From Paraspadella gotoi (Eukaryota; Animalia; Chaetognatha): a stretch of 64,000 nucleotides of DNA. Below, piece by piece: positions 993 to 57,579 of this stretch. The notes beneath the pieces are model-generated. The model saw nothing but the letters and a program-made list of their open reading frames with translations. It had not been told where the DNA came from and did not search any database. A program made the translations under genes and the position numbers. The stretch spans positions 13,013,117-13,077,116 of the forward strand of contig CM119270.1 in the NCBI GenBank assembly GCA_051294375.1, written 5' to 3'. Positions within the stretch are counted from its first letter, which is position 1; the number at the start of each line of letters is the position of its first letter.

Positions 993-3308
993 ATGGGCAT
1001 GGCGACCAACGGCGAGTCGGGCAACGCGGCAGGGGAACCTGCCATCACTCCTGACCGTGCCCTCAAACTCAACGGACACGTCGGCTTCGATAGCCTTCCC
1101 GATCAACTCGTCAACAAATCTGTCGGCCAGGTTCTTTACTCGGCATTTGAGTGAGGAAGGATTACGGCAACAGCCGGGTTGCCTATGATGCCCATTGGGA
1201 TTGGGCATCTCACTGTTGGCTCTAGGGGCTTCCGACCCTCAGTGGCGCCGCCTGCCATTGGCGCAGTTACCCGAGGGCGGTCTCGCTTTGCGTCGTAAGG
1301 ACTGTGAATGGAACGTAACGCTTGGGATGGTGCGTTCCCCATCTGAGTCATTGGAATTGTCTTAACGATGTTGCATCTGAGGCGGTGTAAATATACCGCC
1401 GCAGGATCTTCATTCATCGCTGGTTTGTTTGCCTTCTAGGGATTCTCATTTAACATCCTCTGCATCGGAGAAACTGGGATTGGAAAATCGACCATGATGG
1501 ATACGTTGTAAGTTCATCCAAAAATTCCCTTCACTCTGAAATTTCCAACCAAATAGTAAACTCTTGTCGTAGCGTAATTCATTTCCATTTTTTTAATCCT
1601 CACATAGGTTCAACACGCAATTCGACTCAACTCCTTCCCAACACACTTTACCGGGAGTGGAGTTGAGGGTAAGTTATCCTTCCAATTCTTTGAAATTGTA
1701 TTGCAGAGTCAGTTTTACAAGAGAGCCTCATTTTCCACAGCCCCACACTTACGAACTTCGCGAAAGCAACGTTCGCCTTCGTTTAACCGTCGTCGATACA
1801 ATTGGCTACGGTGACCAGATCAACAAAGAGGATTGCTGGAAGCCGATCGTCGACTACATCGACGCCCAGTTCGAAGGTCTGTGGCTCTGCCGTGGCGGAA
1901 AATTTCTTTTCGACCCCTAGAGTTTCATCTTTGACATTTTTACATCTCCCTGCCAACAGCTTTCCTTCAAGAGGAGCTGAAGATCAAAAGGAGCCTCGAC
2001 ACTTACCACGACGGACGCATCCATGCTTGCCTCTACTTCATAGCGCCCACGGGTCATTCCCTCAAATCCTTGGATCTGATGACCATGAAAAAACTGGATT
2101 CCAAGGTAGGACAGTAGATTTTTTGTGACTGGAAACTGAAATAGATTATTCTCTTTTTTTTTTTGTAGGTCAACATCATTCCTGTAATTGCCAAAGCGGA
2201 CACCATTTCCAAATCCGAGTTGCATAATTTTAAACTAAAAGTGCGTATCGATGGGGGGGGAATACTATTAAAAGCTTTTAAACGCTGCTAAAGACTAATG
2301 GCGTTTCTTAATTTTAGATTATGAGCGAATTGAAATCAAACGGCGTCCAAATTTATCAATTCCCTACCGACGACGAGACCGTTGCCGATCTTAATGGCTC
2401 CATGAACAAGTAGGAAAAATAAGATTTGTTAAATTATGTATTATACATTACTATTTTGACGTAATCTTTTTTGCTATGAAGCCATTTGCCTTTTGCTGTG
2501 GTGGGCAGCACGGAAGAAGTTAAAATGGGCAACAAAATGGTCAAAGCCCGTCAATATCCTTGGGGAACCGTCCAAGGTAATTTTTTTTAAACATGAGGTT
2601 GAAATATATCTTTCTCATTTCTCTTAACCATCGCTGCATACTTCTGTCATCCCCTTTTCCAGTGGAAAATGAGAACCACTGCGACTTCGTCAAACTCCGC
2701 GAAATGCTCATCCGCACAAACATGGAGGATCTTCGAGAGCAGACGCATCAGAGACACTTCGAGCTCTACCGGCGCGACCGGCTGCAGGAGATGGGCTTCA
2801 GTGACTTGACTAACGAGGGAAGAGCCATTGGCTTGGGCGAGACGTTTGAGCAAAAGAGGAACGAGCACCTTCAAGTGAGCCCCTTTGAGAGTTTACAGGA
2901 AAGGGACACTTGTCTAATGTCTAGTTATATCTTGTGTATCGATCATTATTACAGGGACTTCAAAAAAAAGAGGATGAGATGAGACAGATGTTCGTCCAGA
3001 GGGTCAAAGAGAAAGAGTCTGAGTTAAAGGAGTCGGAGAAGGAACTGCACCAACGATTCGAAAGTCTCAAGAAGATGCACGCTGATGACAAGAAGAAGAT
3101 CGAGGTGAGTCGGTCGCGTCTTTCGATCCGAGTGACGTCAAACATCAAACGAAGACGTCCTTTTTTGTGGCAGGAAAAGAAAAAGTTGTTGGAGGAAGAG
3201 ATGCAGGCCTTTTACCGCAAGAGGGAGAATGAGAAGATGGCGCAGGAGGCGCAACGCCTGGCGATGCTGCAGGCGCAAACCATGACCGGAAAGAACAAGA
3301 AAAAATAA
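993..3308 (+). CDS. Septin, SEPT6/8/10/11 group (multi-exon)
   Basis: [35 protein letters not shown] (P-loop), [53 protein letters not shown], and a coiled coil [14 protein letters not shown]. Confidence 0.93.
1163..1403 (-). mobile_element. 241-bp twister-ribozyme-containing element, copy 1 (septin intron 1, antisense to host)
   Basis: Homologous to 21615-21812 and 25875-26115. Flanked by direct repeat GGAT (1159-1162, 1404-1407). Minus-strand ends are TGCGGC...GCCGTA. Removing it shrinks the 309-bp intron (1131-1439) to a typical 64 bp. Confidence 0.88.
1214..1292 (-). ncRNA. Twister ribozyme fold, type-P5 permutation (copy 1)
   Basis: Minus strand reads AAA GCGA GA CCG CCCUCGGG U^AA CUGC GC CAAUGGC-loop-GCCACUG AGGG UCGGAAGC CCCU AGA GCCAACA. 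Core UAA, GC/AAGC (T2), CGG/CCG (T1) and the GA with the general-base G (1282) are present. P5 is degenerate in this copy. Predicted cleavage between 1269 and 1268. Confidence 0.75.
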
Positions 3309-4093
3309 AAACGAACGTTTTCAGGGACGTTTTAGGGGTTTGCCAAAAAAATATGCCGTCGCACGAATATATTTGCCAACGTATCAATCAGTCGTTTGAT
3401 AATGAGATACGTTTGGATGTTGAGGGGTGAAAAAAGCGCGAGATTTTTGTTACTTAAACATATTATTTTAATTCCAAATTATTAATTACTTTATTAAGTT
3501 TATTCTAACTTATTTAATTATTTAGCTCTGCTATGAAAGACATCTTAGACCATAAGTATTTTTACGAAATTAGCAAGATCTGAAAAAATTTAGTCGTCAA
3601 AATCTCTGATTTACTAAATAATTAATTGTTTATCTTTTTGCATGTCACCATAGTTCTATATTTATACAGAGTTCCGCATGTAGATGATTTTAATAAATAT
3701 CTAGTCGAAATTTTGATAGGATTAGGTGTCAACGGTACTCCTATTTTAACAGCCCGCCTTAGTTATTGTGATTTTACGTTTAGTTAATATCCGTCTCTCG
3801 TACATGGTATGTATACTTAGATTTTAGGTTTGTCATGATGTTAAAAACAATAAAAATAGTTTTTTGTCAAAAAACGTTACGGTATCTCTTCTAATTCGAG
3901 TCTTTGTTTAAATAAAGCAATTTAAAACGTTCTTTGTTCAAGTGTTCAGTTTAGATTGAAATTTGTTTAACATTGCCAAAAACTGTCCTTTTTTCCTTTA
4001 CTATTTAACATTTTTTACACGTTTTAAAGTTTTCAGCGTTCTATTTTCGATATATTTTTGTAGATTAGTGATAATTTGACAATACTCTCGGCG

Positions 4094-6206
4094 ATGCGGC
4101 GAAAGCGCGGAAAAGCGGCAAAGAAGGCGAGGCAGGCGATGACGGTGGCTGAGCCCGAGGACCTCGTGAAAGCTCCTCACTCATTCGTGTTTCATCGCGG
4201 TATCTTTTGTTAAAATATAATACCTTATAGCTATGTACGTATGTATGATATGAACTTAACCAACACTTTCGTTTTTTTGACAGGACAAGTTTCGACGAAC
4301 TTGAAAAACCTCATCACTGATTTCAGAAAAGTATTGGAGCCCTTTACGGCTGCGAATTTGAGAGCGAGCGAGAAGAACAGTCTTAAGGTTCGGAATTTAC
4401 CACTTGCCATTTGCCAGACTCTCACTGTGGCGTTGGTTTTTCGGATAACGAAATTTTAAGATTAATTCCGCCACTCTCATTTATTTTCCCTCATCAGGAT
4501 TTCGTTTCTATTGCTGGTCCTCTGAACGTTAGTCACTTTCTCATGGTGAGCTCATCCTCTTCCTCTGCTAACATGCGGATCATGCGACTGGCAAGGGGCC
4601 CCACCATGTCGTTCCGGATAGTCAATTACACTTTATCAAAGGTTAAATCTTAGTGGCGTCGCTTCACTTATACTGCTTTTAAATTGTTACTCATAGACTT
4701 GCATTTTCTTTTCAGGATGTGATCTCAGCCCAGAAACGTCCGAACGTCAACACCAAGCTCTTTGCTCATCACCCTCTTCTTGTCCTCAATGGATTTGGCG
4801 AGCAGAATGGTCAACCTCCGCCTAATCATTTGAAGCTCATGGCTACTATGTTTCAAAATATGTTTCCTGCTATCAACATTAACAAGTAAAGCTAATTGCT
4901 ATTTACCAACCGAAAGGCAAGCTTTCTACTTTAACTTTTTTTCTTTCTCAGAATGAGAGTGGCCAACGTTCGTCGATGTCTATTGATTCGCTACGATCCG
5001 GAATCAGAAAAGATCTACCTCCGCCATTATTCCATCAAAGCCGTTCCCGTTGGTAAGTTACGAAAAAAGTAATTAGAGTAGTTGCTTTTGTTTTTTTCTT
5101 TTTCCCGTGCATTTTTTTTTTTCAGGGGTATCTCGTCGCGTCCGAAGGATGATCCAAACTCGTCTTCCAGACATGTCGGGTTTCAACGACATCGGGGATT
5201 ATCTTCTGAACAAGGGTTGGTCATGTTATAAATATGTTGTTTCTTGATAATATTTGGTACTTCGTTAAAACGGCCAATTTGAATTACCTTTTCTTTAAAG
5301 GCGCGATCAGTTCTGAGTCGGAAGGAGAGATGGACGGAGAACACAACCAAATCCAACTCCCAGACAACATGCCCGGACGGGGAAACATGAAAGAACACCA
5401 GTCGGCCATCCGTCTGCACGAGTTGGGTCCGCGACTCACGTTGCAGCTCGTCAAAGTAAGGGGCAGTCTTTTACTTCGTCAGATATAGCGAAAAGCGAGA
5501 CGATAATACGTACATCTTTCATGATAGGTGGAAGAAGGCCTCTGCGACGGCCGCGTCGTCTATCACTCGTTTATCTCAAAGTCTCCCGAAGAATTGGCCA
5601 CCTTGGAGTCGAGACTGAAGGAACGGCAGAAGCTAAAGGAGACGCGGCAGAAGCAGCAAAAGGCGAATGTCGGTAGGTCTTGCTTATTTAATTATATAAT
5701 TAATTACTCCTATTTAGTTTTAATTCTACACCCATTGAAAAGCGGAAAAGAAGAAGCGGCGAGAGGAACACAAGACTAAATGCTTGGAAGGCATGAAGTC
5801 TAACGAGAACGACATGGGCGTCGCGAACGACGAGGTGGAAGAAGAGAAGGACGAGGACCTGACTAGCGACGAAGACGACGCGGAATACTACAGGTTAATC
5901 GTATGGAAGATCTTCGGCGCAAAGCAGCACGTAAACCAAAAATATATTTTCAGGAATGAGATTGGCGAGGAACCGGAAGCTGGTTCTTTCTCGGCTCCTG
6001 GCGCGAAACGGCGGAGAAAGAAGAGCGCCTCCTCTCTCGAGATTCCTAAGCGGTTCAAAAAGTCGAAGCCGGTCGGCGACAGACAGGCCGGAAAGGCGGG
6101 ACGCCCCGCCGATGGCCGAGCCGGAAGAACTGTCAGATTCGCTGGAGACGCTCGGAAAAAAAATATGAAAAAGCCGGGATTCAAAAAATATCCCGGTCGG
6201 ACGTAA
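4094..6206 (+). CDS. PPAN: Peter pan / suppressor of SWI4 1 (Brix-domain ribosome biogenesis protein)
   Basis: KAPHSFVFHRG, DFRKVLEPFTAANL, DFVSIAGPLNVSHF, RLARGPTMSF, PLLVLNGF, MFQNMFPAIN, QSAIRLHELGPRLTLQLVKVEEGLCDG, and an acidic DDAEYYR tail. Confidence 0.93.
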
Positions 6207-6312
6207 AAAAATATATAGTTTTGCGTCATTGTTGTTGTTTGTGTGCCTTTAAATCGAAAATCGTTTTTACTGTTTTTCCAGAGGAAAAATAATTTAAAGA
6301 AAGAAGGGGAAA

Positions 6313-7339
6313 ATGACTGAAGACGACGACTGGAGCGTGAATCTGCGGAGGAAAGGCGGGTTTTATCAAGACGCCGATTGGTGACCAAATTCTTGTTTGA
6401 ACTCGAAATACGGTTTTTCCCTATTATTATCTTTCCGAGAAACCGGGTTCTTTAGGTACGCACTACAATTGACGCGAAAAATGCCGCTGGTGACTAAGAT
6501 GCTGAAGGAGCTAACGTTCGCCCTTCCTCCTTTGAAGGAGGGTAGAGTCTGCGACTTGGCCGCCGGAAACGGCAACGCCGCCGTTCAAGTGAAAACTGCT
6601 TATCCGAGGTTGCCTTTCATCGTGTCTTGCCTTATAGAGGATGTAAAAACATGATCTGAAAGCGATAAGTTTGTTGTCGTCTTGGCAGAGTGGCGGTCAG
6701 CGTCGTGGAGCAGTGTCCCTATCGAATCGAACAGTGCAGGAAAAGATTGGAGGAAGCGGGATTTAGCTTATTTGCCGAATATCAGCATAAAATCGTCTTG
6801 AATACGGGAGGTGCCATTGGAGAAGTGGCTGACAAAGCTATACCGGGTATTCGTTGATGGCCTCTGTTATTGCCCTACTTGTTGGTTTATATTTAATAAT
6901 AAATCGAAACACTTATTTCTTTTGTTTTAATATTTTTCACGCTTTTTACGGAATTTTGTTGTCATTGGTACGCGATGGTATCGCAGGTTCTCCATATGAC
7001 GCCGTCGTGGGTTCTTTGGCCCTTCACACCCTCGTTGGACATGACGCTGATCAGTCTCTTATTAGAGACAGATATTGCAAAGTCTTTTCGCTGGTTTTTG
7101 ATTCTCTCAAACCCGGGGGGCATTTTATTTTCGGAGATCACGTAGAGCTTCTTCCACTTTACAGGTCCTTTACTTTCCTTTTTGATACTGAGGGATAGAA
7201 ACTATTTTGTTTTTTAGCCTAATATAAAAAATCCAGACAACTCCGCCTCATGGAAGATGTTGGCTTTATGTCCATTGACGTCGCTTGGCGCGAAGATGCA
7301 TATTTCGTGGCGGGAGGCCGAAAACCCAAGGCTGTTTAG
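6313..7339 (+). CDS. Class I SAM-dependent methyltransferase of unknown substrate (multi-exon)
   Basis: Motif I RVCDLAAGNG, YDAVVGSLALHTL and VFDSLKPGGHFIFGD. GT-AG introns; ends ...YFVAGGRKPKAV-stop. Confidence 0.78.
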
Positions 7340-7688
7340 TCCTGGCGCTGATTGGTTTTGATGTGGTTAATTCGTCCGGTTCTTTGCATTTTTTAATTTC
7401 TTAATTTCTTTCTTTGATATACTCAATGGAAAGTTCGATGTTTCGATAAATTTGATAAACACAATTATACAATTTAGTCATGACATTTTTATACAATTTT
7501 TTATCCCTTTGCGGAATTATCGATCGCGAAATAGTCAATATATTGACTGAAACGAAAATAAGTGATTCAAATTTACACAAATATGTACAATTGTACATAT
7601 TCAGGAAATTTGATCCTAGGTCTCTCCGACCCGTAGTGCCCCGCGTCTCTCAATAAAAATTGAACTTGAAACTCAAAAAACAGTTGAA

Positions 7689-10600
7689 ATGAGCGAAGTT
7701 CAACCAGAGGATCCCAAATTAGATGTCGTCAGGGCGCTTTTAAAGGAGGACGATATAAAGGTGAATCGGTAGTGCACAACAAAAATTTAAATGCTTTTTT
7801 TTTACCGTAAGTAAACCGTAAATTTAAGCCACTCAAATTGACGTAGTTATGGCTCCCGCCTTACACGAATGAAGAAACGAATGAGGGCCACTTTCCGCCG
7901 GAACTGGTGGAGAAAATTTCGAAGGGCATCAATCTTCCCCCAAACGAAGTAAGAAAATGAGAAGATTAAAATTGCCTTAACGAGGACCGCGACAATCCAA
8001 CAATAAAAATATGAAATTGTTTTAATTCGCCAAACCCTCTGTGAATGTTTCAGGTCATTGCGCGACTTGAGTATCTTCGTCAAAACGCCCTCGAACGTCT
8101 CACGGCCCAATCGGTTTTTAAAGAAACCGGTAGGTTGTCCGATTATTACAGCGGCAAAAAAAAAAAAAAAAAAAAACCCGATTAATTTCGATCGTCCCTT
8201 ATCCGCTTTGACCGTTAGGCGTCGCTACGTTCAAGGTCAAAGTAGGCGGGAAAAGGAGGTCCGACGACGACCGACCAAAAACCTTCAAGTAGGAACTATG
8301 ATAACTTAAAAAGTACGTATCTCGAGCGATGCCTGAGCAATTTTTCTTCGACGCAGCGTAAACCTCTCTCTATCCGAGACCGGGCGCGCCCTCCGGCAAA
8401 AAGTCATCGAGGGCCTTCATACGGCGCCGTCCACATCTTCTGCGTCTTCCTCCTCCGTCCGCGTCATTTGTCGAGGTAAAGTTATCAACGACGAGGATCC
8501 CATTCAAGCGCAAGGCTTGAGAAACGGCGCCGTGCTCATGGTTCTAGTCTCCGTTGGGGAGGAGGTAAGACTTCCAAAGATTTGTAAACGAACGAAAGCC
8601 CCCATGATTTGTTGCAATGTTTTTTTGTCCGCTGCGGCGCTGTAGGGAATATCTCAAGAAGAAAAGAAACAAATAGGCGTTCGACAAGTGACGCGGGCGG
8701 CGGAGATTTTGTCCTCAGTCAACGATTTCGATGACCTCGACCTCCAAGCCTCCAACCTCAGCATCACCGATCAGAATGGGAAGCCTCTCAACCTCCCGCA
8801 TCAGGAGAAAAAGAGTTTGATTCAAGGTCACTAGAAAATAATTTAAAATATTTGTGGCGAATCGATGGATTCGCCAACTTCTTCCAAACGGCGCCAAGGC
8901 CCACATATTTAAGGAAACTAAAATAAAATTAGACAAAGATATTTTTATTATCATATTTTTTAGAGATTATATATTTTTTATTATTAGGTATTCAGTAAAA
9001 ATAAGTACGTAAATAGTAAATTATTTAATCAACGATTGCAAAAGTAATACAAAAGTAAACTTTATGATAATCAACGAAGACGTAGTGAACGGGCACGATC
9101 GACGATAAAACGATTACTGAATATTCCCAGTCAACGATGGGTCTTCACACTCAGACATCACTAGTCTCTAGATATTTCATTTGCAAAAATACGAAAATAA
9201 TTGAATGCACCCTTGCCGTCAGGGATGGCGTTAAACGACAAGGCGAAGCAATTTTTGAAAAGACGCGACTACGAACTCGCTCTGCCTCTGCTCATCGAAG
9301 CGGACAGATGCTTCTCTCGCTGCTCCGAGGGGATTCTCAAACGTGTCGACAATTATGCCCTATTGCATCTTGACGTGGCTTGGTGCTATCTGTGTTTAAG
9401 GTGAGCAGAGTCCTTTGAGTTAAGCTTAACTAGATTTTTTAACAAACATTCGGTCCATTCAGTAACATCGGCGATTTGCCCGACGCGGAGCAACGGCTGG
9501 AGAAATGTGAAGAATGCTTCCTTCAGAGTTATGGTGATACACCCCTTTCCAATTCCCCAATTTCTCAATCTTCTCCACAATTTTCCCCTTTGCTCTCGGT
9601 CAGGCAGAGACCTCTCCAGGGCGGCGAACCTAAAAGGCGAAGTGCTCACCACCAAAGTGCTCATTGGCCGACTCCATCTCCTCCAAGGCATTCTCGCTTT
9701 CCACCGAGGCAAACTTCATCGTTCCAAGGAGCTCTTGGCCAGCGCCGAGGAAGAGGTGATGATAGAGAGGCAGCCTGATCTTGCTAATTTGTTTTTGTAA
9801 ATGTTTATTAATTTATATGCAGCTCAATTCCCTCATCGTGACCCCGGATTTAATTGGCAAGTTGTTGATGATGGGATTTAGCGAACAGGTTGAACATTAT
9901 TTCAAACATTTTTAAGCTATCTTTAAGTACATTTTTGAATTGTCAAACGAAATTGCTGTTTGTGGTTGTTCAGGAAGCGCGCCTTGGTCTCCGTGCCTGC
10001 AGCAATAACGAGAATGCTGCCATTGATTGGATCATGAGACGTCGAGAAGAGAGGAAGAAAACGCGAGATAACGAGAAGAGGCGAAAGCGGATTGGAAAAA
10101 CAATTAGCGGAAAGGACGTCAATATCAGGTCCGATTAAAAATACTTTATGGACTCAACTGACTTAACAATCTTTGTTTCTCATTCTGGTACAGCATGTTG
10201 GATCAATTGTTGGAGATGGGATTTCCGGAGCAGCTCGCGGAGGCGGCGCTTCGGCAAACCGACAATAGCCTGGTAAATGGGATTGATGAAGGCTGGAGTT
10301 AAAGTTGAAGAGTTTGAAGAGAGTACAAATTCAAACCACGCTGTCGTTTTGTTGTTTTTTTTCATATACATTATGTATATGTATGTATATATGTATATAT
10401 ATTGTATATGTATTATGTAGTTTATCTTTCTCGCTCTGTCCTCCCAGATCCAAGCCATCCACCTGATCGAAACTGAGCCGGAACTCCTTATCGAAAGCAC
10501 GGCGACAAACGACCCGACCGAACACGAATCTGGTCCGGATTATGAAGTCACCGATGAGGTATAATAATGTAATGTGTGGTCTTCTTCTTTCCCTCGAACT

Positions 10601-11037
10601 GACTTTTGTCTTCTTTCAGATGGTGCACCAGGTTTCAGCTCTGGGCTTTGACTGGGACCAGGCTCTTTCTGTGCTTAACGATTGTCGAGGAAACGTGGAA
10701 AGAGCCGTACAGGTGAGCACTGAGCAGCCGCCAATCCTCAATGAAGTTGTCCTTTCTGGACGTCATCCTCATCTTTCCTCGCTGACAGGTCCTTCTCGGT
10801 AACGCCAGCCCACCTTCGACGTCGTCTTCCTCTTCGTCTTCTTCCCCTCCTTCTTCAACCAATGAGGCCCCCTTGCGGCGGAAGAAAAAGAAGAAAAAAA
10901 TCAGCGAAGACGAGCGCGACGCCCTCAACGATCTCGTTAACGATCTCGAGTTCGACGACGACAAAATTGACGACCACCTCGATTTGGCTCTCGACGAAGA
11001 GATGGAATTTCTAGGAAAATACAAAAGCCTATTTTGA
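7689..11037 (+). CDS. NUB1: NEDD8 ultimate buster 1 (Ubl + UBA domains)
   Basis: IKLWLPPYT N-terminus, Ubl-like VRVICRGKVI, LSITDQNGKPLNLP, ILKRVDNYALLHLDVAWCYLCL, RLHLLQGILAFH, UBA repeats (LLMMGFSEQEARLGLRAC, LLEMGF), and a C-terminal DDHLDLALDEEMEFLGKYKSL. Confidence 0.9.
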
Positions 11038-11249
11038 ACAAATCACCAGTAGAATTTGTTTCTTTTTCGTTTCCTGAATTATGCGCATTTTAGACGGAAT
11101 GTTAATTTATTTCTATATACCTATTTAGCTTAATACTAATACGTACTAGCTTAGTTTGTAAATAAAGCAGTTCTTAGTCTAACTTTTTTCTATATCCAAT
11201 TCTATGTCCAACTTTATACGGGTGTCTGTATATCGCTCAGAATTTTATC

Positions 11250-11549
11250 ATGTCCATTTTGTCCGATTCTTACGAACCCTCCGTCCTCGATTTCGAACGC
11301 CATCTTTTCCGCTGCCAGTCTCTGCACGGAAGATTCAATCAAATCTACGTTTACGGCGAATTTTTGGACTGCTCCGGCTTGAGGCGATGCTTGGGCATCT
11401 ACCGAGCAGAGACACCTCGCGACGAGACTATCGTGGCCGACTGTCGTCGCCAACTTCGTCCGAAGATCCCCTTAGAGATGGAGGGGAAACGCAATGTAGA
11501 GCCGGTGTGGAGGCCGCGCGATAGCCCTCCTGATAATTGGCCGAGGTGA
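11250..11549 (+). CDS. C22orf39/UPF0545 (DUF3128)-like small protein
   Basis: Single ORF of 99 aa with CQSLHGRFNQIYVYGEFLDC and a C-terminal VWRPRDSPPDNW, both motifs typical of this family. Confidence 0.72.
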   Translation: MSILSDSYEPSVLDFERHLFRCQSLHGRFNQIYVYGEFLDCSGLRRCLGIYRAETPRDETIVADCRRQLRPKIPLEMEGKRNVEPVWRPRDSPPDNWPR

Positions 11550-11762
11550 AGCGAAGGGTCAGGAGTGTTCGAAAGATATAAATGTCTGTTCGGTGTTGTA
11601 TTTGTATGCAATATATTCATTGGCTAAGGGGTTGAAACTGTTTTCGAAACACTTGTCAAATTGCCATTTCGTAGTCTTTTTTCTTTACTATCATTTTGTA
11701 CGCCTTTTCGTCAACATAGTAGAAGCCTTGTGCGTAAAAGAGAAACTAATAAAAGCGGGAAA

Positions 11763-16212: not shown

Positions 16213-17888
16213 ACCCGTATCGCGACGAACGAGAATAGAAAATCGAAACTATTTCTCATTAACTGCGGAAAAAACGCTTTCTGTGGAGCCGCCCGAATAA
16301 AAACTAATTTAGGAAACCACGAACGCTAAAAATTAAGCTGACGTTGCACACCTTCGAGTAGCGAGCGCACCGAGTGTACCATGTAGGTGCTTTCCTCAGT
16401 GCTTCAAACTTTCGTTTTCATGGAAATATAAACCTTCGCTCGACGAAGCAAACAAACAAACATTGCAAGAACTTATTATGCGACAAACTGTAAAAAAGAA
16501 CAATGTATGTATATCAGCGAACGACGAACTGCGAACGAAGTCGATTTTTTTTTGTGCGGCGGATGTGAAACGCGTTTACTGGATCTTGTGATAATCGGTG
16601 CCCAACTGATAAGAGGCATTTTTTCCTTTTAGTTTTCCATAAGTACGATTGCGTAATTCGTAGAAGTAAATTCGTTAGTTGTTTTCTAAATATTAAATGA
16701 CTGAGCGTTTTTGAAAACGTACACGTTTTTCCATTTAAAATTATTATCGTAAAAAAAAAGAGCTTTTTTCGTTTATTTGGAACTTCACATTGTTAATAGG
16801 ATAGTTTTTTCAAATAAAATATATCTAAAAATATTTGTTTTGAAGGGATTTTCAAGTATATCTTTGCCTATATCATTGAACATTTTTTTTTAAGTTTCCT
16901 TGTTTAGTTTGAGAATAAAACCATTAACATCCACGATTTTTCTACTGTTAAATTTATATTTTTTTTTCATGTTAAACTCCTCGTTATGCTGCTTGCTAAA
17001 ATGTAGCAAGTATCTTTAAATTAAAATATACTCACGATTTTGAGTAAATTTTGATATTAGTAGACCTAGTCTTTGAAATTCATCGAAAATTGTATCTTTC
17101 TGCGCATAATTTTTTGTAGGTATATTTTTTTAATGAAATAGTGTTTCAAGGTCTTTTTTCTTTCAAAACTATGTAGCCTATTCTGCTTTTTGTTTTGAAT
17201 GTAATCATTTTTTTATGCCATCTGAAATGCTCGCATTTAATAGTTGTCTTTTGCAAAATATAGTTATCGCCATTGGCATACATTTTTCATAGTTTCTTAA
17301 CAATGTCCTTGCTTTTTTGGGGATCTTATTTTATATATAAGCACCATCACCATGCCTCCAATTAATTGGTTTAGCTTAAGTTATAATTTCTTTAATTAAG
17401 CAAAATAAAAAATAAATTTTAATACCTGAATATTGAATAACTGTAGTTAAAATTTCTATTTTAATCATTTTAGTGACTTTTTCGTTTCATCTTCTTATTT
17501 TTGCCAAAAAATAATCATTTGAGAGTCTCCACACCCCTTTTTATAATTCTTAATACCTAATCTAAAAATTACTTTCGAATCCTCCGTTCAATTAATTATA
17601 TTGTATTGATCCTCTCTCGATTTGTTCCGGTTTAACTTAATTCGGGCTAGAGCTCAACTTTTTCCTTGTTTTTTTTTATTTCATTTGGCTCGTCGAGGTT
17701 TCATATGCCAGAATAAAAAATATAGCAATGGATTTCAACGCATTGAGCAGTCAATAAAACGGAAACTATTAACAGTATTCGTTTCATAGCTTGGAGACTT
17801 GGAAATAAATATAAAACTGAAAACTTAACAACCAAAAAAAATGCTCGGACACATCTAAGGTTTTTGGCTTAAATTAACTGGCGTATTC

Positions 17889-20800
17889 ATGCTTCCAACG
17901 CATCTGGAGGAAGTGAATCGCGCGAGTTTCAAGGAGGCTCGCCCGGTCGCATCCTCGGACCGAGGCAGAAACCACGAAACCCTCTGTGGCCGCCTTCGCA
18001 GTAGCGTCGACAGCATTCGCGGCCGCTTCGCCAGCAGCGTCAACAGTATTTGTAGCGTCGTCTCGCCTCGACGCTGGCGGTTCCGCCCCTGGGGAAACAC
18101 CATGCTCCATCTTCGAACTATCTCGAGCTGGAAACAAACCTTGCGATATGTACTTGGTGAGTCTTACGCTTCCAGAACATTCGCTATTAATCATTTCTCT
18201 AACTCGAGCTCGACATTTATCGGTCGTCTTATTGTCTTCAATTAGCCACGTTGGTCGGCTGTTCGTTCAAAACGAATTTGGAGCTGACTGCATCACAAGC
18301 TTTACTCTCGGGTTGGCTGGTTCTTCAGTTGTTGGGGGGCTGGCGCTTCACGAAAGTAGTTTTCTTAACCCTGAAAAGGGACGCCATTGGATTGTACGTC
18401 TTGTTAAAGGTGAGACAAAATGGGTCTCCCCATTAATCTGCCTTTTATAATAAAATTTGTACATAATCTTTTAGGTCAAATACATGTTAAACAAGAACAT
18501 CAAAGAAAAACAAAATATTCCCAGTCTATTCCGCCAAAACGTTTTAAAGCATCCACACAAAAGTTGTTTCCTGTTCGAAGATCAAGTCTGGACATTCCAA
18601 GATGTTTATCATTTTTCGAACAGAGTTTCCAACTATTTTCAAAAAGAGGTAATTTTTAAAAGGTGCAAGCCTAAGGAAATTTGTGACTTAAGAATATTAT
18701 TTTGTCACCAGGGGTTTTCCAAAGGAGACGTTGTCGCTCTCTTCATGGAGTCTCGTCCGGAGTTCGTGGGTTTCTGGTTGGGCCTGGCCGCCATCGGCGT
18801 CGAAACAGCCCTCATTAACTACAATCTGCGCACAGGTCAGGCTTGTGATTAGTCGCTTTTTTATTAGTTGTTAGTGATTTTTTGTCTTATTTTTTTCAAA
18901 ATTCTGCATATTCTTTCATACAGACTCATTGGCACATGCGGCCAATGTGGTCTCCTCTAAGGCGCTCATCTTCTCTTCCAACTTGTCTTCGGCGGTGGAC
19001 GAGGCGCTCCGCGGGGCCCACCTTCCACACTCCATGCGACTTTATTCCTACTCGACGAAGCCGCAGGCAGGCAGCAACGTGCCGTCGTCGTCTTCGACTG
19101 AATCCCCGGAATCGACGGAGACCCTCCGCTTCGTCACTGAAAGTCACGTGACGCCGTTGGAAGAAGCCCTCAGGAAAAGCTCTACTTTACCACCTTTGAA
19201 TCCACCCTCGGTGAGAAATAGGCACTTGAGAATCTTCAGCATAAGAAGGATGGTATTAATATGGTAAATTCGATATTATGCAATTATGATATGATATATA
19301 TATATATATTATGATATTATACTATTATGCTGTGATGTTTTTATATTGAACAATGCGAATGTCCTATCAAACACAATTAAGTCGGAAAAATTAAATTGAC
19401 AAAACGAAATATAGTATTAATTTAATGAGCATTGAGTGACACTCAAAAGTAGTCATTAACCAACATTAAACAATAAAACGTTTCCAGTATTTAATTTATT
19501 ACTACCATATAATTAAATTGTACTTTTGTTTAGGTCGAGTTTACTGATGTTATGTTGTACATTTTTACGTCGGGTACAACGGGACTCCCAAAAGCGGCTG
19601 TGATAAAGCATCAACGTTATTTCTTGTTTGCTTATGGAATAACTATTTCATTCAGGTAAAAACTAAATATCTAATAAAAAGGGTTGTAAGTCACGATACA
19701 TTGGGTTCTACACTACATATTTTTTTAGTATCTTACCTGAAGATATTGTCTACGGATGTTTACCTCTGTACCATACGGCGGGAAATAACTTAGGAGTAGG
19801 CACCGCCCTGATTCAAGTTAGTAGCCATTTGTTCAAAGAGCTTCTGGTGAGAGAACTTACTTACTAAACATCACAATTCATTACAGGGTTGCACTGTAGT
19901 TCTTCGTAAAAAATTTTCCGCCAGCCAATTTTGGAAAGATTGCTGTAGATACCGTGTCACTGTGATACAATACATCGGAGAAATTTGCAGATATCTGCTT
20001 GCGCAACCTTCATCACCGTATGAGAGTGAGCACAAAGTACGGTAAGTTTTTTGGAAGAAACTTTTGTTTTAGGTGGGAACTGTGAGTTGCACAACGTAAA
20101 TGGTTTAAAAAAAAGAAAAGAAATTAAAAAAAAAAAAAAAATTAAGCGCCCCGTCCCTCTTAACGGCTAGGCGAACACGGGGCTAGAACCTTTGGGTTGG
20201 GAGGCGAATGACTTGCCTCGTGCACCAATGGCCGCTGATAAACAGTTGGTGGATTTTAGTCCTCCATAATTCTTCGAAATATTATACCACTTCATTGATA
20301 GGGAAGCTCGGGACTCAGGGAGTGAATAAACGAGACTGTGAGAGAGTCCTGATTGAAATCTAGCAGGGACCTGTTATGTCATTATCTTGTAAGAGTGATG
20401 GAGGCCTTAAACCATCAAAGCCTGTCCACAATCAGGGGCAAGATAGCTTATTTATTAAATTAATGGATAATTTTCATATTGGTTGTACCAATTTCATAAT
20501 TTATAAAGTAAAATAATTTTAGGTTGGCAATCGGTAACGGACTCCGTCCTCAAATTTGGAAGAATTTTCAAACACGTTTCCACGTGGATCTCATCGGAGA
20601 ATTTTACGGATCCACTGAGGGCAACACCAACATCGGTGAAAATATTTAAAATTTATTTAAAATCCAAAAGGAGTCCCAACTTGTCGCTAATTTGTTTAAT
20701 TTGCGATTCAGTCAACATGACGTTTCGCCAAGGATGCGTGGGGTTCACGACGAGGATCATGCCCGCGCTCCATCCTGTTTCGCTCGTCAAAGTCGACGAG

Positions 20801-22640
20801 GAGACGGAATCTGTCGTCCGAGGTCCCGACGGGCTCTGCATGCATTGTCAGCCGGGTGAGCCGGGTCAATTGGTCGGCAGAATACCGCCCAAGGATCGGT
20901 TCTTGCAATTCGACGGATACGCCAATCAACAGGTTAGCCTTTCATGGGTAATGGGGTCAGAAAACCCTTGTTACAAGGTTTTTAACATCGTTGATGGACA
21001 AAATAGGCGACGAAGAAGAAAATCGTCTTCGACGTTTGGAAGAAAGGCGACATGGCGTTTTTGAGCGGTGACATTCTCGTCATGGACGAACTCGGATTCA
21101 TGTACTTCAAGGACAGGACTGGAGATACATTCAGGTCCGCGACGTCGCGTATTTAGAGACTTTTCCTTTTCGTTATCTTTGTTTTCATTTCTTTGTTTAT
21201 TGATTAAAGATGGAAAGGGGAAAACGTTTCCACGGCCGAAGTCGAGGGAATCATCATGCAGATTCTCGGCTTGCGCGACGTCGTCGTTTACGGAGTCGCC
21301 GTTCCGGGTGAGACGCTTTTCTTCGTTACGATCCACTTGACGAGAGGGGTTTCGCTTCCAGGCCTCGGGACGCTCTCTTTTTCTCAGGAGAAAATAACAT
21401 TTATTGACAATAGTGGCCTCTGTTATCTATTACAAATTGCTCGATTAAGGCGGGCGTTATGGGTAAGAAATCATGTTTTTTTACATTTTCAACAGATTTC
21501 ATATATTCGATGAAAGTTTTGTTTACCGGTTATTAAATCACCGTAACTTACGGCGCAATTTAAAATATTCGCGGTTCAACGGCGCTCGGCTATGCTCACA
21601 GAAAAATATCCCACTGTGGCGGTATATTCACCATCCCAGGCGTAGTGTTCCATACCCAGTCCTAACGACTTCCCTCTGCTTTGGCAAAGCGAAACCGTCT
21701 TAGGGTAACCGCGCCAGTGACTGCATGCGTCACTGAGGGTCGGAAGCCCTCAAAGCCAGCAGTGAGATGCCCCATCCCAATGGGCATTACAGGCAACCCG
21801 GCTGTTGCCATACCACTTTATTTTAATTTTAGCTATAGTTTCTTTACCCCTTTTTGCACTACAAGCCCTTCCTGACGGATAAAGATTACCGAAACGCTTA
21901 ATCGAGTTCCACTCTTGTATTGGCAAATGGAGGCTGGGGAGTTAAAAATTGTTTAAAAAAGATAAACATTACCGAAAACATTTTCTATCTTACTCTAGAA
22001 AAACAAGAATTCCTCCGGAAAAACAATGGTATAAGCTTTCCAAAAATTCTTATCTCCCCTTATCTGCCATCCTCGCTCCAGGAACTGAAGGCAAGGCGGG
22101 AATGGCGGCCATACATGTCGATCTCTCCGGGGGCGGGGCCAGCGGCGACGCGGGGGTTGGTGGCTGCGGAGATGTTTCTTACCCCGACCTCGATAATTTG
22201 GTAAGTAGTTGTCGAATTGGCCTGCATGGTGCATATATTTTTTCGTGCGTTCACTAGTAAATCTAACATGAATTTCGACCCCGAAATCAGGTGAACGAAA
22301 TGAAGACCAAGTTGCCGTCCTACGCGCAACCTCTTTTCATTCGTTTTGCTTCCGCCATCGACGCCACTGGAACCTTCAAGTTCAAGAAAAACTCCCTGCG
22401 GGAAGAAGGGTAAGTCCTATCAGTTATTATGCTTACTTATATGATTGCTTTTGTTTTGGTATGAATCGTCTAATTTTATTAGCATTTTTAAACCCACACA
22501 CCAGAATATTGTCTCCTATTAGGTACAATCCAGACAAGATCTCTGACTCGATTTTCGTGTTCGACGCCAATTCCAGCAAATACATTCCCCTGGACAGAAG
22601 GATTTACGATCAAATACTGAGCGGCGTCGTGAGGCTTTGA
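17889..22640 (+). CDS. Long-chain fatty acid transport protein / very-long-chain acyl-CoA synthetase (SLC27A1/4-like)
   Basis: [35 protein letters not shown] (AMP-binding motif), [68 protein letters not shown]. Start codon uncertain. Confidence 0.93.
20107..20235 (-). mobile_element. Short tRNA-derived SINE-like fragment in FATP intron
   Basis: Minus strand reads GCGGCCATTGGTGCACGAGG (A-box-like), TTCGCCTCCCAA (Gly-like anticodon loop), a truncated B-box, a GCCCCGT...ACGGGGC hairpin and a long T-run. Confidence 0.4.
21615..21812 (+). mobile_element. Twister-ribozyme-containing element, copy 2 (FATP intron, sense to host; internally deleted, catalytic G mutated)
   Basis: Ends TGTGGC...GCCATA, TSD CCAC (21611-21614, 21813-21816), 198 bp with part of the 5' half missing. 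Twister core spans 21677-21761 and has GCGA-AA-CCG instead of GCGA-GA-CCG. Confidence 0.87.
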
Positions 22641-24576
22641 AGACTGACGCCAGTTTTTATCCGGTGCCATCTTCTCTGCCGATTCTCATTGAAAAAAAAA
22701 TGCCGGCGCGGAAATGAATTCATGTTTTTATATATATTTGTTTTAGAATAACCTTAATTTTACGTCGTTCGCCAGATATTTTGTTCAGTGATTTATAAAT
22801 AATGAAAAAGAGAAAAAACGCGGGCAAAAAATTCAACAAAAAACGGGACACGCTTCTTTTTCTCGGCTAATCAAAATTCTTCCCGCGATCAGCGTTTGTG
22901 TAAAAACAAATGGTTGTCGACGCGTTCGGGTGTCTTGGTTGAAATAAACATAGGATTGTATTGGTCAATGGTCTTAATGCTCTCCCCCTCTCCTTTAATC
23001 TTTTCCCGGTTACCGGGTCCACTTAGTCACCAAATCATATTCCATCGCTAGCACAAAGTTGACCTGCGAGAGAAGACTTAAAACAAATGAAAAACCAATA
23101 TAAGTAACCATTGTTCGTGATTTGTCAGTGTATTGTGAATTAGGGTAACAATATGTCATTCTCATATTTAAAGATGTAAAAAAATTATTATAACATAGTC
23201 TGTCGCATTTTGCGACAGATTTATATTTTTAATTGTTTTCACCTCGCTCTACTTTTCTTTTTTTTTTTTTTATTTCTTTCTTTTCATTTATAGCTCGCTA
23301 TCTTTCTCTCTATCCCTCTCTCCGACTTTCTCCCTCCACTCTTTCGAACTCTTTCACTCTCCCGGACCCATGAAAACTGCCCGTGCCATGCGGATTCGGT
23401 TCACAACAGGATCTTGTCCTGTTGTGATCCCTGCCCCTCATCTCTCTTTCTCACACTCGACTTTAATTTCTCTTCTTAATTCTCGCCACAATTTGGTTTT
23501 GCCCGAAGCGCATCTCGCTTTTTCTTTTTTTTCCGGGCTTTGCTTTTTAGAACATCATGCGTTGACTTGTGTCATTGTTCATGATCTTTCTAATGTGTTT
23601 ACATCACTTTGTGTGATTTAATGTTTTTGTTTACGAAACGTTTCTTTTTATTGTTAATTACGTATAGATTTCAATGTTCATTATACATTTCTTGGTTATG
23701 TTAGTTTGAAACTAAAAGGTGCCTTTGGTAGTACGTTTCTATGCAAATTTCCCAACGAGTGTAAATTTTAGATTTTTTTTTCTATTAGTTCAAAGTATAG
23801 AAGGTAATCTGTACCTAAGTTTTCACTGATTTTATCTAGTAATAATTTTTTTACATTATTTCTTTTATTTGCATGAGTGTTTATTTTAAGTACCAATTTA
23901 TGGGAATAAGTTTCGACCTACTAATAATTATAAACTTATTGTATCTAGCCTAATGATTTTTGACACTTAATAGGTGTTCTATTTTATTCATTTGGTATTA
24001 TTTGAGAGCCATGCAAGGTTATTTTCGATTGATGAGAAACTTCCAAATAAGAGAACAATGTGGGAAAAAGAAGAATACGAGCTTATGAGCAAATTAGTCG
24101 AACGTCCATTTTATTTTTGTGATTTTTAAGTCCTTGAGGTATACAATACATGTATTTTATGCCCAAACCTTAAAAACGTATTTATGGGATTTAAAATTGC
24201 TATTTCCTTAGTGCTAAACACTACTTTGATACAAATATTAATGATTGCCAGTGAAGGTAATTGGAGAAGGCAATTATTTTGTATTAGACGCCTGCAATTT
24301 GCAAATGCTTTTTTGGCTTAGATGGCTGGCATACTTAGCGAACGCCTTTTATTTAAATGCTTATATAAATTTTTTATATTAAATTTGTATTCTTTGTTTT
24401 GCATTATTTCAAGGGGTTTTCATTATCTTTACAGTATGGTTTTTCTCGTTTGTAACATTTCTTGTGGCGATATCTCAGAGTCCCTTCACACTAGAGACTT
24501 AAATTGTGACTCATTTTGTAGCCCGCCGTCTGGAATTTAGGAATATATTCATTTTTATATAATTCTATAAGTCTTA

Positions 24577-24777
24577 AGGGCTAAATTTTACTTTCGCCGA
24601 CCGCGGTTATGGCGGCTTTTGAAAAATAATTGCAAAAATATATATATATTTTTCAAATTTAAAAAAAAATATTACTTAATTACCCTAAACCCTCTTAACC
24701 CTAATTACCCCTAACCTTAAACCACCCCTAAATTACTTTTAACCCTAACCCCGGTCGGCGAATGTAAAAGTAACCCT
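24577..24777. mobile_element. MITE with ~30-bp imperfect TIRs and internal telomere-like (TAACCC) repeats
   Basis: AGGGCTAAATTTTACTTTCGCCGACCGCGGTTA ... TAACCCCGGTCGGCGAATGTAAAAGTAACCCT, flanked by TA/TWA. Degenerate CCCTAA repeats at about 24681-24750. Confidence 0.65.
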
Positions 24778-25379
24778 TATATTATGTATCATACACAATG
24801 CCAAAACCTTCAAAACCGACTATCATTAATCTTTTTAAATTTTAAGGTTGGTAATATAAACAGTCGCGAAATGTTACAAACGAGAAAAATCATACTGTAT
24901 ATGGTTCTTCTTTAAATTTTTTTTCCTGGTTTTAAAATCATTTTTCAAATACCGTTTAGTTAATACTCGTTATACATTATTTCAATAATAAACCAAATAA
25001 AAATCAGTACCAAATACAAGAAAATATTCAATAGCTTTAAGTTTAAATTTTATGTTCGTATGTCGCGTTTAATACTCATAACTTGAGTTGCGAGTTGAAG
25101 CGATTGGTCAACACTAAAACAATAGTACAACGCTAATACTAAGTCGCCAAAAAGTATTTGGTTTTGGCCCGAAATAAAAACGGTTTCATGTATTTTTCGT
25201 ATTAGGTATATAATCCCCGGCAGCTACGAAAATTTGTTTTGCTCTCGCTTTTTTCTCCAATCATGGAAAAAAAATCGAATTTGTTAATTTACACAAAAAA
25301 GATTATCGTGAAATGTTTTGGTCCTACTCATCTTTTTCCAGATGAATTACAATTAAAAAAAAAGTATTTGAGAAAAAGA

Positions 25380-28300
25380 ATGGGGGTGGCCTCGTCGGGC
25401 AAAGGAGTTTCGGTGTTCGTCCCGCGTCGTTGCCTGGACAGCCCCTCCGGCCTTTTGTTCGGCTTTCTCTTTCCCGCGGAAACCGGGAACGTCGTCGCTT
25501 GTGCCGTCCTGTTGTTGCCACACTCAGCGTCTCATGGTAAGTCAAAAAATACATATACTTAGATTAATATTTACAGAAGGCTTTATATTAGAAAATGCTC
25601 TTTCGTTTTTTCGAACTGAGAATCGGTTCCGATGAAACTACTAGGCCGACCTCGGTGAAATTTTGCACGAATTAATTTTAGGGCAATAGAAATGGGACTA
25701 TCTGGTGGATTTTTTAAATTTGACTTATGACCCAGAATAGCAATTATCTTTCAGGTAAGCTCAGCCTATTCAATGACATAATAAATAGCCACGCATATAG
25801 ATTATAGAATAACATATGAGTTTATGTCCTCCAAGTGATTTGTTCAGAACCGATTCTCGGTCAGAAAAACGAAGTATGGCAACAGCCGGGTTGCCTGTGA
25901 TGCCCATTAGGATGGGGCATCTCACTGTTGGCTTAGGGGGCTTCCGACCCTCAGTGACACCTCCAGTCACTGGCGCGGTTACATAAGGACGGTCTCGCTT
26001 TGCCAACACAGAGGACTGGATGGAACACAACGCCTGGGATAGTGTGTTCCCCCTTTGAGCCAATGGGATTGGTTGAACGATGATGGACGTGAGGCGGTGT
26101 GAATATACCGCCACAGAAGAGCATTTTCTTATATGAAGACTTCTGTATATGTTTGTAGAGTCTAAAAATATTTTTTTACTGCTGTTTTAGTTAGCTTATC
26201 ACCCCTTTAATATCTGCATCATTATATAAAACTGGTACAACCAATATATTTATTAGTGGTCTAATTCTGGTCGGTGAGTGTTAAAATGTGAAAAAAAAAT
26301 GTTTTCATATCGTTTTTCTAAGACGACTCCGCCTATACGAAGGAAACGAATAAAGTTCCAGACAAAGACTTAACTCTTTTGGGCGTGTGGATAAACGAAG
26401 ACGGTCAACAACGGTTCGAAAATCTCGTCTCTGTAAACGAAAATATCCACTCTCAAGTTTTCTTCATTTTTGACGCAGTAGTAAGTTGTGCTTTGTGCAA
26501 TGTAAATATGAAATTGAAAGTTTGCATGTCAGTGTGGGGGCGCGTTATGCTTATCGCTTTGCTCGCAATTTTCGGTTATTTTGTTATATTTGTTTTATTG
26601 ACCGAAAAGAATTGTGTATTACATTGAACCAAATTTAAAAACTGTTTCATAAGATTTTTAAATAATATGATGTTAAGAAAAGGTTCCTTAATCCTTAACA
26701 TCACTAGCGATACTAATAAATTTCGCAACCATCTGTGCCAATGAAACAAAAGAACAGTCCTTTTCAAATTCTGATGATGCAGTCAAGAAAAAACACATAC
26801 ACCCACTAGATCCTCCTCTCTCTTATTTGGCCATAAGGAGAACTTATTTTTTCCTTTCCATTCTTTTTTTATTTGTTAAGATTTTCTTTCTGTTGTCTAA
26901 AACGACTCTTGATTAGGGTTTTTCTTGATTATAAGAAGGAACGAGTTATCATGCGAGATCCCGTCTTGACTTTAAAGAAAAAGAAATTTAAAAAAATGGG
27001 CGGATCCCGCCCAAAAAAAGAGTCGGGGAAATGATTCATGTTCGTAATTTGAGTGAGTAAAGAGTAAACAAATTATTTAAATTAATTCCTTATTTTGTAA
27101 ATGTTGACGAATTTCTGGGAATTGGTTACACGAGTGGTGTCTGAGAAAATGTTTGAAACGACATTCAAGTTATTTGGCGGAAGAATGAGTGACGAATTCC
27201 ACATTCAATTAATTTTGTTTTGCCTCAGGCACTTTCTCGCTCAATAATCCTGTCGTCCGACGAAACGGAAGACGTGACGACCAGAAGCGAAACGGTTTCT
27301 CGGTTGTACAAATTGGTTCGATCGCCACAAATAACTACGACTGCGTTTCGGGATGCTCACAGCCTGCTCCCCTCTAAAAACGCTTATTCGCCGGATCCCA
27401 TTGAGACGACTAAGTCGACTTCCTGCTCCGTGCAAAAACCCACTAATAATCAATGGATTCGCCCTTTTTTCTGGCTGCTCACGAGCTCGGCCCTGTGTCG
27501 CCAAGTACGTCTCAAGCTTGCCTGTCTCAGCTTTTCTTTTGGGAGGCTGAACGCCGTTACATCGGAAACATCAATTTCCCCGCGGCCTCGTGGAAACGTT
27601 TTTATTCGTCCCAACCTCGCGGCCATTCTCGCGCTTGACCTCCTTTTTGGCGTCGTCGCCTGTCACCTTCTGTGGATGCGAAAGGACTGGATATGTCGCC
27701 AGCGCGTCGTCGAATTGTCTCAGGGGGTCGCCTTCGAATTGAGGAGGCTCATTATTTGGTTGCAGGTGAAGAGGCGACTTTCACTTCACCGCGTCACATC
27801 GTCCTAACTTAACTTTACTTACCTTTTTTTGTAGGGAGCGCCGGCCGGTCTCAAGTTGAACGAGGAACTGTCTCTTTTCATGGGCAACTTTTTTTTCTAC
27901 CATATTCATCTATGGCTTGGGTCAGTTTAGACGCTTTTTTATGCAGCGAGTCTCTTTTCTTCTTTACCAAAGGCGTAATTTTTTTCATTTTTTAGTTATC
28001 TGAGTTTTCTGGAGCCAGTTCTCGAATTCTCTCTTCAAATTCTTCCATGGCTGGGCTGCGTCTTCGGTTTGTCGAGTCAGTTGGCGCTGGTTAACGACCT
28101 TCTCTCTTGTCTTGGGTAAATCTCTTAATACGTGAACTTCAAATGTCTCCACTCTAATTGAAAAGATGTGATTTAACACTTTAGCTAACCAATTTGCCAA
28201 GATATATTAGAAATATGTGTAGGCTATGAAGTTATTAGTAAGGTTTTATAATTTTATTCATTAACAAAAAGGGGCGAGATAATCATAATCTTCAAGTTGA

Positions 28301-31527: not shown

Positions 31528-43310
<11,783 letters not shown>

Positions 43311-52167: not shown

Positions 52168-57579
<5,412 letters not shown>

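Follow-up and report, generated by a model that had tools for sequence, protein, structure and literature searches.

Among mobile elements that carry self-cleaving ribozymes, long terminal repeat (LTR) retrozymes are known mainly from plants, animal retrozymes are associated with Penelope elements, and animal twister ribozymes with RTE and Perere-3 elements (PMC7761336, PMC8501958). A preprint also places LTR retrozymes primarily in plants, the word 'twister' being absent from the text at hand (bioRxiv 10.64898/2026.07.22.740005), and the available parts of two other papers add nothing on LTR elements (PMC10085705, PMC12542633). Among twisters themselves, the type P5 permutation makes up ~1% of those annotated (PMC6154101). 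Here we examine a family of short elements in a 64,000-nucleotide stretch of the chaetognath Paraspadella gotoi (GenBank assembly GCA_051294375.1, contig CM119270.1, positions 13,013,117 to 13,077,116 of the forward strand; hereafter the window), four copies of which combine a predicted type P5 twister with duplications of the target site (TSDs) that are 4 bp long. By analogy with the plant elements, we put the probability that these copies are solo LTRs of a non-autonomous, Gypsy-mobilised, twister-bearing LTR retrozyme at about one half. An earlier note on this stretch, made from its sequence, knew of no description of such a combination; we likewise found no twister-bearing LTR element in the full-text literature searched, which comprised few subscription papers and no supplements, Repbase or Dfam.

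Table 1. Copies of the element, their flanking duplications and predicted ribozymes, and the repeat that contains copy 3 (positions in the window).
Feature	Position	Strand	Remarks
Copy 1, subfamily A	1163..1403	minus	241 bp; ends TGCGGC..GCCGTA; antisense within septin intron
TSD GGAT of copy 1	1159..1162 and 1404..1407		exact 4-bp repeat
Predicted P5-type twister, copy 1	1214..1296	minus	predicted cut 1269/1268; catalytic G at 1282; little pairing in P5
Copy 2, subfamily A	21615..21812	plus	198 bp; deletion in 5' half; sense within intron of FATP-like gene
TSD CCAC of copy 2	21611..21614 and 21813..21816		exact 4-bp repeat
Predicted twister, copy 2	21679..21761	plus	predicted cut 21706/21707; A in place of the catalytic G at 21693
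Copy 3, subfamily A	25875..26115	minus	241 bp; ends TGTGGC..GCCATA; within right arm of MITE
TSD GAAG of copy 3	25871..25874 and 26116..26119		exact 4-bp repeat
Predicted twister, copy 3	25926..26008	minus	predicted cut 25981/25980; catalytic G 25994; 7-bp P5; 7-bp P3
Copy 4, subfamily B	32178..32433	minus	256 bp; ends TGTTGC..GTCACA; antisense within clathrin heavy chain intron
TSD ATAC of copy 4	32174..32177 and 32434..32437		exact 4-bp repeat
Predicted twister, copy 4	32231..32310	minus	predicted cut 32284/32283; catalytic G 32297; T1 CCA/UGG
Host MITE (a transposable element of the miniature inverted-repeat type) of copy 3	25572..26149		inverted arms of ~60-80 bp, flanked by TA; not part of the element

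Three of the copies (Table 1, copies 1-3) lie where the earlier note had placed them and are homologous, with 78-86% identity over ungapped columns. The set is larger than the three described: a BLAST search of the window gave no further copy, but a scan based on structure alone produced a match at 32284, and with it the more distant copy 4, which can be aligned over its full length with the other three at 54-58% identity (alignment score 161 against copy 3; maximum of 85 in 200 shuffles). The ~241 bp proposed earlier is the size of copies 1 and 3 but not the length of the unit, and the agreement between these two copies is in part a coincidence: each lacks different short segments that copy 2 retains. 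Copy 2 in turn is missing ~57 bp within its 5' half, and copy 4 has 256 bp. Similarly, the termini given for the family, TGTGGC/GCCATA, are those of copy 3, while copy 1 departs from them at both ends. The claim that each copy has its own exact 4-bp TSD and no tail is borne out for the first three and extends to the fourth, and the joint chance of four such duplications, estimated from base composition, is ~1e-10. Sequence scans of the window copies revealed no tail, RNA polymerase III (Pol III) B box, tRNA or long open reading frame (ORF), and the longest ATG-initiated ORFs reach 36-63 amino acids; there is thus no coding capacity. The 5' end fits TGTNR in three of the four copies, and the terminal inverted repeats (TIRs) are imperfect and 6-7 bp long. 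In all four copies the 5' and 3' termini can join in an RNA helix of 7 bp that includes G-U wobbles; the asymmetry between TG and TA at the ends corresponds to one such wobble, and in copy 1 one pair of the helix is changed on both sides. Alternatively, each end can form a local hairpin of its own.

Contigs from nine public runs of three studies cover the region, three of which (X1, X5 and X7) are DNA runs of the same species and not independent of one another; depth summed over contigs does not give a copy number and is inflated where short contigs overlap. In run X1 this depth was 79,000-1,285,000 across copy 3 compared with 97 in unique flank, and it was near-equal at the two ends of the element (1.09 and 1.03 million). 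Since 6,380 contig records fall on the 1-kb stretch around copy 3, the family likely has thousands of copies. Subfamily B is abundant too (depth up to 341,000, compared with 94-97), and its contigs end at 32433, mostly with a TA 3' end as in subfamily A and with ATAT adjoining. Loose contig ends pile up precisely at 25875 (149, 117 and 80 contigs in X1, X5 and X7, respectively) and at 26115 (114, 94 and 69), so that the family has sharp ends and no 5' truncation, and beyond these points the contigs enter unrelated flanks (agreement 0.42-0.46). In each of the three DNA runs the commonest letters next to either end spell T-ATAT-A, at low agreement, and match the motif of the 412/mdg1 Gypsy clade of Drosophila, which makes a fixed 4-bp TSD at a low-information ATAT flanked by T and A (PMC3276498). 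Gypsy-dependent miniature retrotransposons with terminal repeats (TRIMs) of animals also make 4-bp TSDs (PMC10886601). Because the TSD is exact and 4 bp long in all four copies, the contig ends are sharp and the target motif is centred on ATAT, integrase-type insertion is likely, and these sequence signatures lead us to favour it strongly. Target-primed insertion is very unlikely, given the same fixed TSD and target signature and the lack of a tail, B box, tRNA or long ORF.

The second half of the combination is the ribozyme. The motif order described earlier, in full P5-P2'-GA-T1'-P1-UAA-P2-GC-P4-L4-P5', is kept in all four copies, and the U^A cut positions previously assigned to copies 1 and 3 were located there. 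In every copy 106 nt separate the predicted cut from the 3' end of the element, and 92-150 nt separate it from the 5' end. The UAA cleavage loop occurs in all four; the conserved GA is present in copies 1, 3 and 4 and is AA in copy 2, the predicted ribozyme of which is expected to be impaired, with A at the general-base position. The T1 and T2 pseudoknots are 100% paired in the four copies, as are 81% of cells in P2 and 88% in P4. T1 is CGG/CCG in subfamily A, CCA/UGG in subfamily B and CcC/GgG in the Rfam consensus, so that two of its three pairs differ on both sides between the subfamilies, and P2, P4 and P1 likewise show changes on both sides. Altogether ten both-sided pair changes were observed, where shuffles gave 3.5 and slid controls gave 0-4, a count that is drawn from four related sequences with the structure taken from copy 3 and is not a probability. 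Core positions are invariant at 11 of 12 sites, compared with 69 of 169 other ungapped columns (four copies; Fisher p 0.0006).

These patterns agree with what is known of the twister's tolerances. In a deep mutational scan, single changes in T1 abolished activity and swapped T1 pairs retained it, while mismatches in P1 and P2 were tolerated (PMC5113685; see also PMC9901934, PMC11662667), and P1 has been reported to be dispensable (PMC5113685, PMC11662667). The stems of the copies are less regular than first described: P5 has 7 bp in copy 3, is partial in copies 2 and 4 and for the most part fails to pair in copy 1; P1 never exceeds 2 bp and is down to 1 bp in copy 3; and in copies 1-3 the P2 position that adjoins the cleavage loop has a C-A mismatch. 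In light of the mutational scans, neither the 2-bp P1 nor the mismatch in P2 is disqualifying. Contigs of subfamily B show fuller pairing of P3, P4 and P5 than copy 4 itself.

A descriptor for the P5 order, built from Rfam-consensus core letters and pairing rules for P2, P4 and T1 and composed after copies 1-3 had been seen, matched copies 1 and 3 and, as a new find, copy 4, whereas for copy 2 the requirement for the catalytic G had to be relaxed; it had no match in 20,000 dinucleotide shuffles per copy and one in 150 whole-window shuffles. As copy 4 was found blind, it serves as an independent test of the structure. A scan of the window with Rfam, a check of the kind that the earlier note had proposed for its three copies, gave no match at the gathering threshold. 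With permissive settings, copies 1 and 3 matched twister-P1 (RF03160; 15-15.9 bits, E 1.5-2.3), and copy 4 matched Twister-P5 (RF02684), a model that has no P3, over positions 1-58 of 58 (20.6 bits, E 0.056). Hammerheads gave no match in the Rfam scans of the window and the copies. With the compensatory T1, P2 and P4 changes of copy 4 and its weak full-length Twister-P5 match, the type P5 fold first proposed for this family holds up, and from the sequence we regard a real, once-active twister in these copies as highly probable. Other UAA..AAGC matches in the window (2236, 12519, 18863 and 26224) lack T1 and P2 pairing and were set aside as chance. The three antisense copies keep the catalytic G, and the sole sense copy, copy 2, has lost it; selection against cutting of the pre-mRNA would be expected to produce this, but with n = 4 the pattern is anecdotal.

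If the copies are LTRs of a retrozyme, the cycle may run as follows. A parent with two such LTRs would be transcribed, either by read-through or from the LTR, and the twister of each LTR would cut at the same point, which lies 106 nt upstream of the 3' end of the LTR. Cleavage would then release an RNA made up of a ~106-nt U5-like part, the internal region and a ~150-nt U3-like part, with no R repeat; once this was ligated into a circle, a helper Gypsy could reverse-transcribe it and integrate the product. Copies with a single LTR might arise by recombination between LTRs or straight from short cDNAs, the two routes proposed for the solo LTRs of plant LTR retrozymes (PMC4918200).

Several observations weigh against this reading. 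Neither a primer-binding site (PBS) nor a polypurine tract (PPT) was found beside any copy in the window, and no reverse transcriptase (RT) or integrase was found in the 28 ORFs selected for scanning out of the 113 in the window. In the contigs, no common internal sequence dominated the 24 of 842 loose-end rows listed (agreement 0.42-0.47), nor was there a head-to-tail or two-LTR join among the 15 of 75 subfamily-A joints listed; the missing interior is weak evidence, since a common interior would collapse into few contigs. Only one of the four window TSDs (copy 4) lies near ATAT, and the ends are TG..TA in three copies and TG..CA in copy 4 alone, although TG..TA has been recorded among the non-canonical LTR motifs of plants (10.1101/137141). 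On the side of the ribozyme, the Rfam scores fall well below gathering thresholds of 67.2 bits (twister-P1) and 37.6 bits (Twister-P5), pseudoknot-free minimum-free-energy folds do not return the full twister scaffold, folding z-scores of the whole elements are weak (-1.45, -1.58, -1.68 and +1.22), P5 is broken in copy 1 and the general base is replaced in copy 2. The sub-gathering scores weaken Rfam membership, not twister-like folding, and LTR-retrozyme membership is offered as the best inference from analogy and not as demonstrated. Among the subfamily-B contigs (12 of 251 loose-end rows and 15 of 17 joints listed), one single-copy contig of run X1 leads from the 5' part of a copy back to a 3' part, in direct orientation and across intervening sequence (32413 to 32218), and may mark a two-LTR or tandem locus at another place in the genome.

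The same TSD, end and target evidence would serve for solo LTRs of an autonomous Gypsy element, the LTR twister of which forms RNA ends, and the ~40% distance between the subfamilies points to an old lineage. We consider this unlikely: the ORF scan found no coding relative in the window, the extensive hairpins and very high copy number resemble TRIMs and retrozymes more, and cuts in both LTRs would presumably deprive a coding RNA of its cap, R repeat and poly(A). A more radical alternative dispenses with the internal region, the ~250-nt unit itself being the replicating RNA circle, released by the twister from rare tandem dimers and inserted as single units by a Gypsy-type integrase. All four window copies are single, hundreds of contig ends enter unrelated flanks, and the termini pair as a helix with one both-sided change in copy 1; yet no tandem junction appeared among the subfamily-A joints listed, no known route would prime the cDNA and define its ends where PBS and PPT are lacking, and collapsed contigs would conceal any shared internal region. 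We find this version quite unlikely.

Non-autonomous DNA transposons, Ginger2-like or of another DDE type, that happen to carry a twister are harder to reconcile with the copies and seem to us improbable. Ginger2 does begin with TGTNR at the 5' end, makes TSDs of 4 bp at AT-rich targets and has a non-autonomous member of 252 bp, but Ginger TIRs are 40-270 bp long, the Ginger2 target is RTATAY rather than the T-ATAT-A seen here, and the CCGG target of Ginger is not seen either (PMC2836005); moreover, cut-and-paste transposition gives no reason for ribozyme and spacing to be conserved across 40% divergence. Of the integrase or Ginger-type insertion that the earlier note had proposed, the integrase part is retained, on TSDs, sharp ends and target motif, and Ginger is disfavoured for lack of long TIRs. 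Known animal twisters do occur in non-LTR elements (PMC8501958, PMC7761336), and the family might accordingly be a SINE (short interspersed element), a fragment of RTE/Perere-3 type or a Penelope-dependent non-LTR retrozyme. To this we give almost no credence. The TSDs are fixed at 4 bp, there is no tail, B box or tandem unit, contig depth is equal at both ends, and the cut is internal, whereas Perere-3 TSDs abut the cut (PMC8501958). The variable TSDs and 5' truncation that the earlier note would have expected of non-LTR fragments are not seen in the window TSDs or the contigs, respectively, and the four 4-bp TSDs by themselves already largely refute a non-LTR origin.

Regarding the surroundings, the intronic placement claimed for the copies is confirmed for copies 1 and 2, while for copy 3 it rests on predicted splice sites. 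The septin intron that holds copy 1 (1131-1439) would measure 64 bp without the element and one TSD, and the septin protein shares 64-76% identity with named septins of arthropods and deuterostomes and 87-89% with two unnamed proteins; the FATP-like assignment of the gene around copy 2 has an E of 0.007. Copy 3 is antisense to a plus-strand gene, the first exon of which gave no match. The MITE that harbours it has a depth tens to hundreds of times single-copy. An empty-site comparison at copy 3 is supportive only: the opposite MITE arm holds a single TSD-like core, but models with one and two TSDs tied at 83 (4 and 6 gap columns, respectively), and the paralogues differ by a 1-nt indel. Further MITE-like elements lie at 24430-24899 (32-bp arms, 97%, with an inner inverted pair at 24579-24776 around degenerate CCCTAA-like repeats) and 54958-55214 (31-bp arms, 94% complementary). 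Short interspersed repeats occur at 26214-26306 and 47419-47457, at 20461-20505 and 37289-37333, and at 32068-32157, and a long CT-rich low-complexity tract at 34267-34723. The window is very gene-dense, its genes being compact with many short introns, and includes septin, PANTS-like, YTH, FATP-like, clathrin heavy chain, NPR2, Ras-family and MIT-domain genes, as well as what are presumably ClpP, PIG-Q-like, Rheb, LSm4 and calpain-7.

One of the public runs, X9, joins the exons at 26481-27230 and about 31992-32474 and thus contains spliced RNA. It also holds element-bearing contigs, which cannot show strand, ends, level or circles; its higher depth over the 3' half of the element has a similar trend in the DNA runs and was not used as evidence. 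In the same run, depth is identical (363.5) over exons of two genes (26384-26451 and 32482-32560), possibly one spliced contig from a polycistronic or read-through transcript. Beyond this species, copy 4 had no records in runs X10 and X11, from other organisms, which is no proof of absence. A search for relatives of the motif gave four viral and 20 metagenome loci without the upstream GA, T1 and P5 context or BLAST similarity, and these were rejected as chance, the best profile hidden Markov model matches (E 0.03-0.8) falling over the seed motif; the two-subfamily pattern had no matches in the genome contig and viral contig collections. Over viral, metagenome and prokaryote collections together, the scans yielded chance matches or none.

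If a twister does reside within an integrase-inserted, LTR-like element of an animal, the pairings of LTR retrozymes with plants and hammerheads, and of animal twisters with non-LTR elements, would both be broken. Ribozyme classes would then be interchangeable within the LTR-retrozyme strategy, that strategy would have arisen independently in animals, and there would be a biological role for the rare P5 permutation, of which natural variants would number in the thousands. Were the unit to replicate without an internal region, we would be dealing with a viroid-sized twister RNA circle written thousands of times into a genome by a Gypsy integrase, i.e. an animal class of integrase-dependent retrozymes that has a new ribozyme and replicates by a minimal cycle. 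As the family is invisible to Rfam at the gathering threshold, similar families may be overlooked elsewhere.

Among described systems, the LTR retrozymes of plants (Cervera et al., 2016, PMC4918200) resemble the copies broadly, sharing a non-coding LTR-like unit of 250-350 bp with an internal self-cleaving ribozyme, 4-bp TSDs, solo copies and a proposed Gypsy helper. They differ in carrying a type III hammerhead, where here there is a type P5 twister with P3 in an animal host, and in having a two-LTR form, PBS, PPT and RNA circles, none of which was seen here in the window or in the contig rows listed. The animal TRIMs Helenus and Ajax (PMC10886601) likewise have short non-coding LTRs with a structured-RNA module and may reach thousands of LTR copies, and Helenus makes 4-bp TSDs and depends on Gypsy; their module, however, derives from tRNA or 5S RNA (with a Pol III promoter), whereas the copies have a ribozyme and no tRNA or B box. 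The twister variants of Perere-3/RTE share the core and the setting of an animal mobile element (PMC8501958, PMC7761336), but there the ribozyme stands at the 5' end of an element that moves by target-primed reverse transcription, with the TSD at the cut and RT/APE downstream, in contrast to the internal, P5-permuted twister, fixed ends and 4-bp TSDs seen here. Animal non-LTR retrozymes (bioRxiv 10.64898/2026.07.22.740005) are also small non-coding ribozyme repeats, but are tandem, Penelope-derived, of hammerhead type I and flanked by long TSDs, unlike these single twister units. From type P5 twisters (RF02684) the copies take the order P2'-GA-T1'-P1-UAA-P2-GC-P4-L4, and differ by an inserted P3, a 2-bp P1 and exchanged T1 pairs. 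The copies would thus work like an LTR retrozyme yet have no hammerhead, and are predicted to fold like a P5 twister yet score below the Rfam threshold; by this comparison they likely represent an animal equivalent of the LTR retrozymes found in plants, based on another ribozyme.

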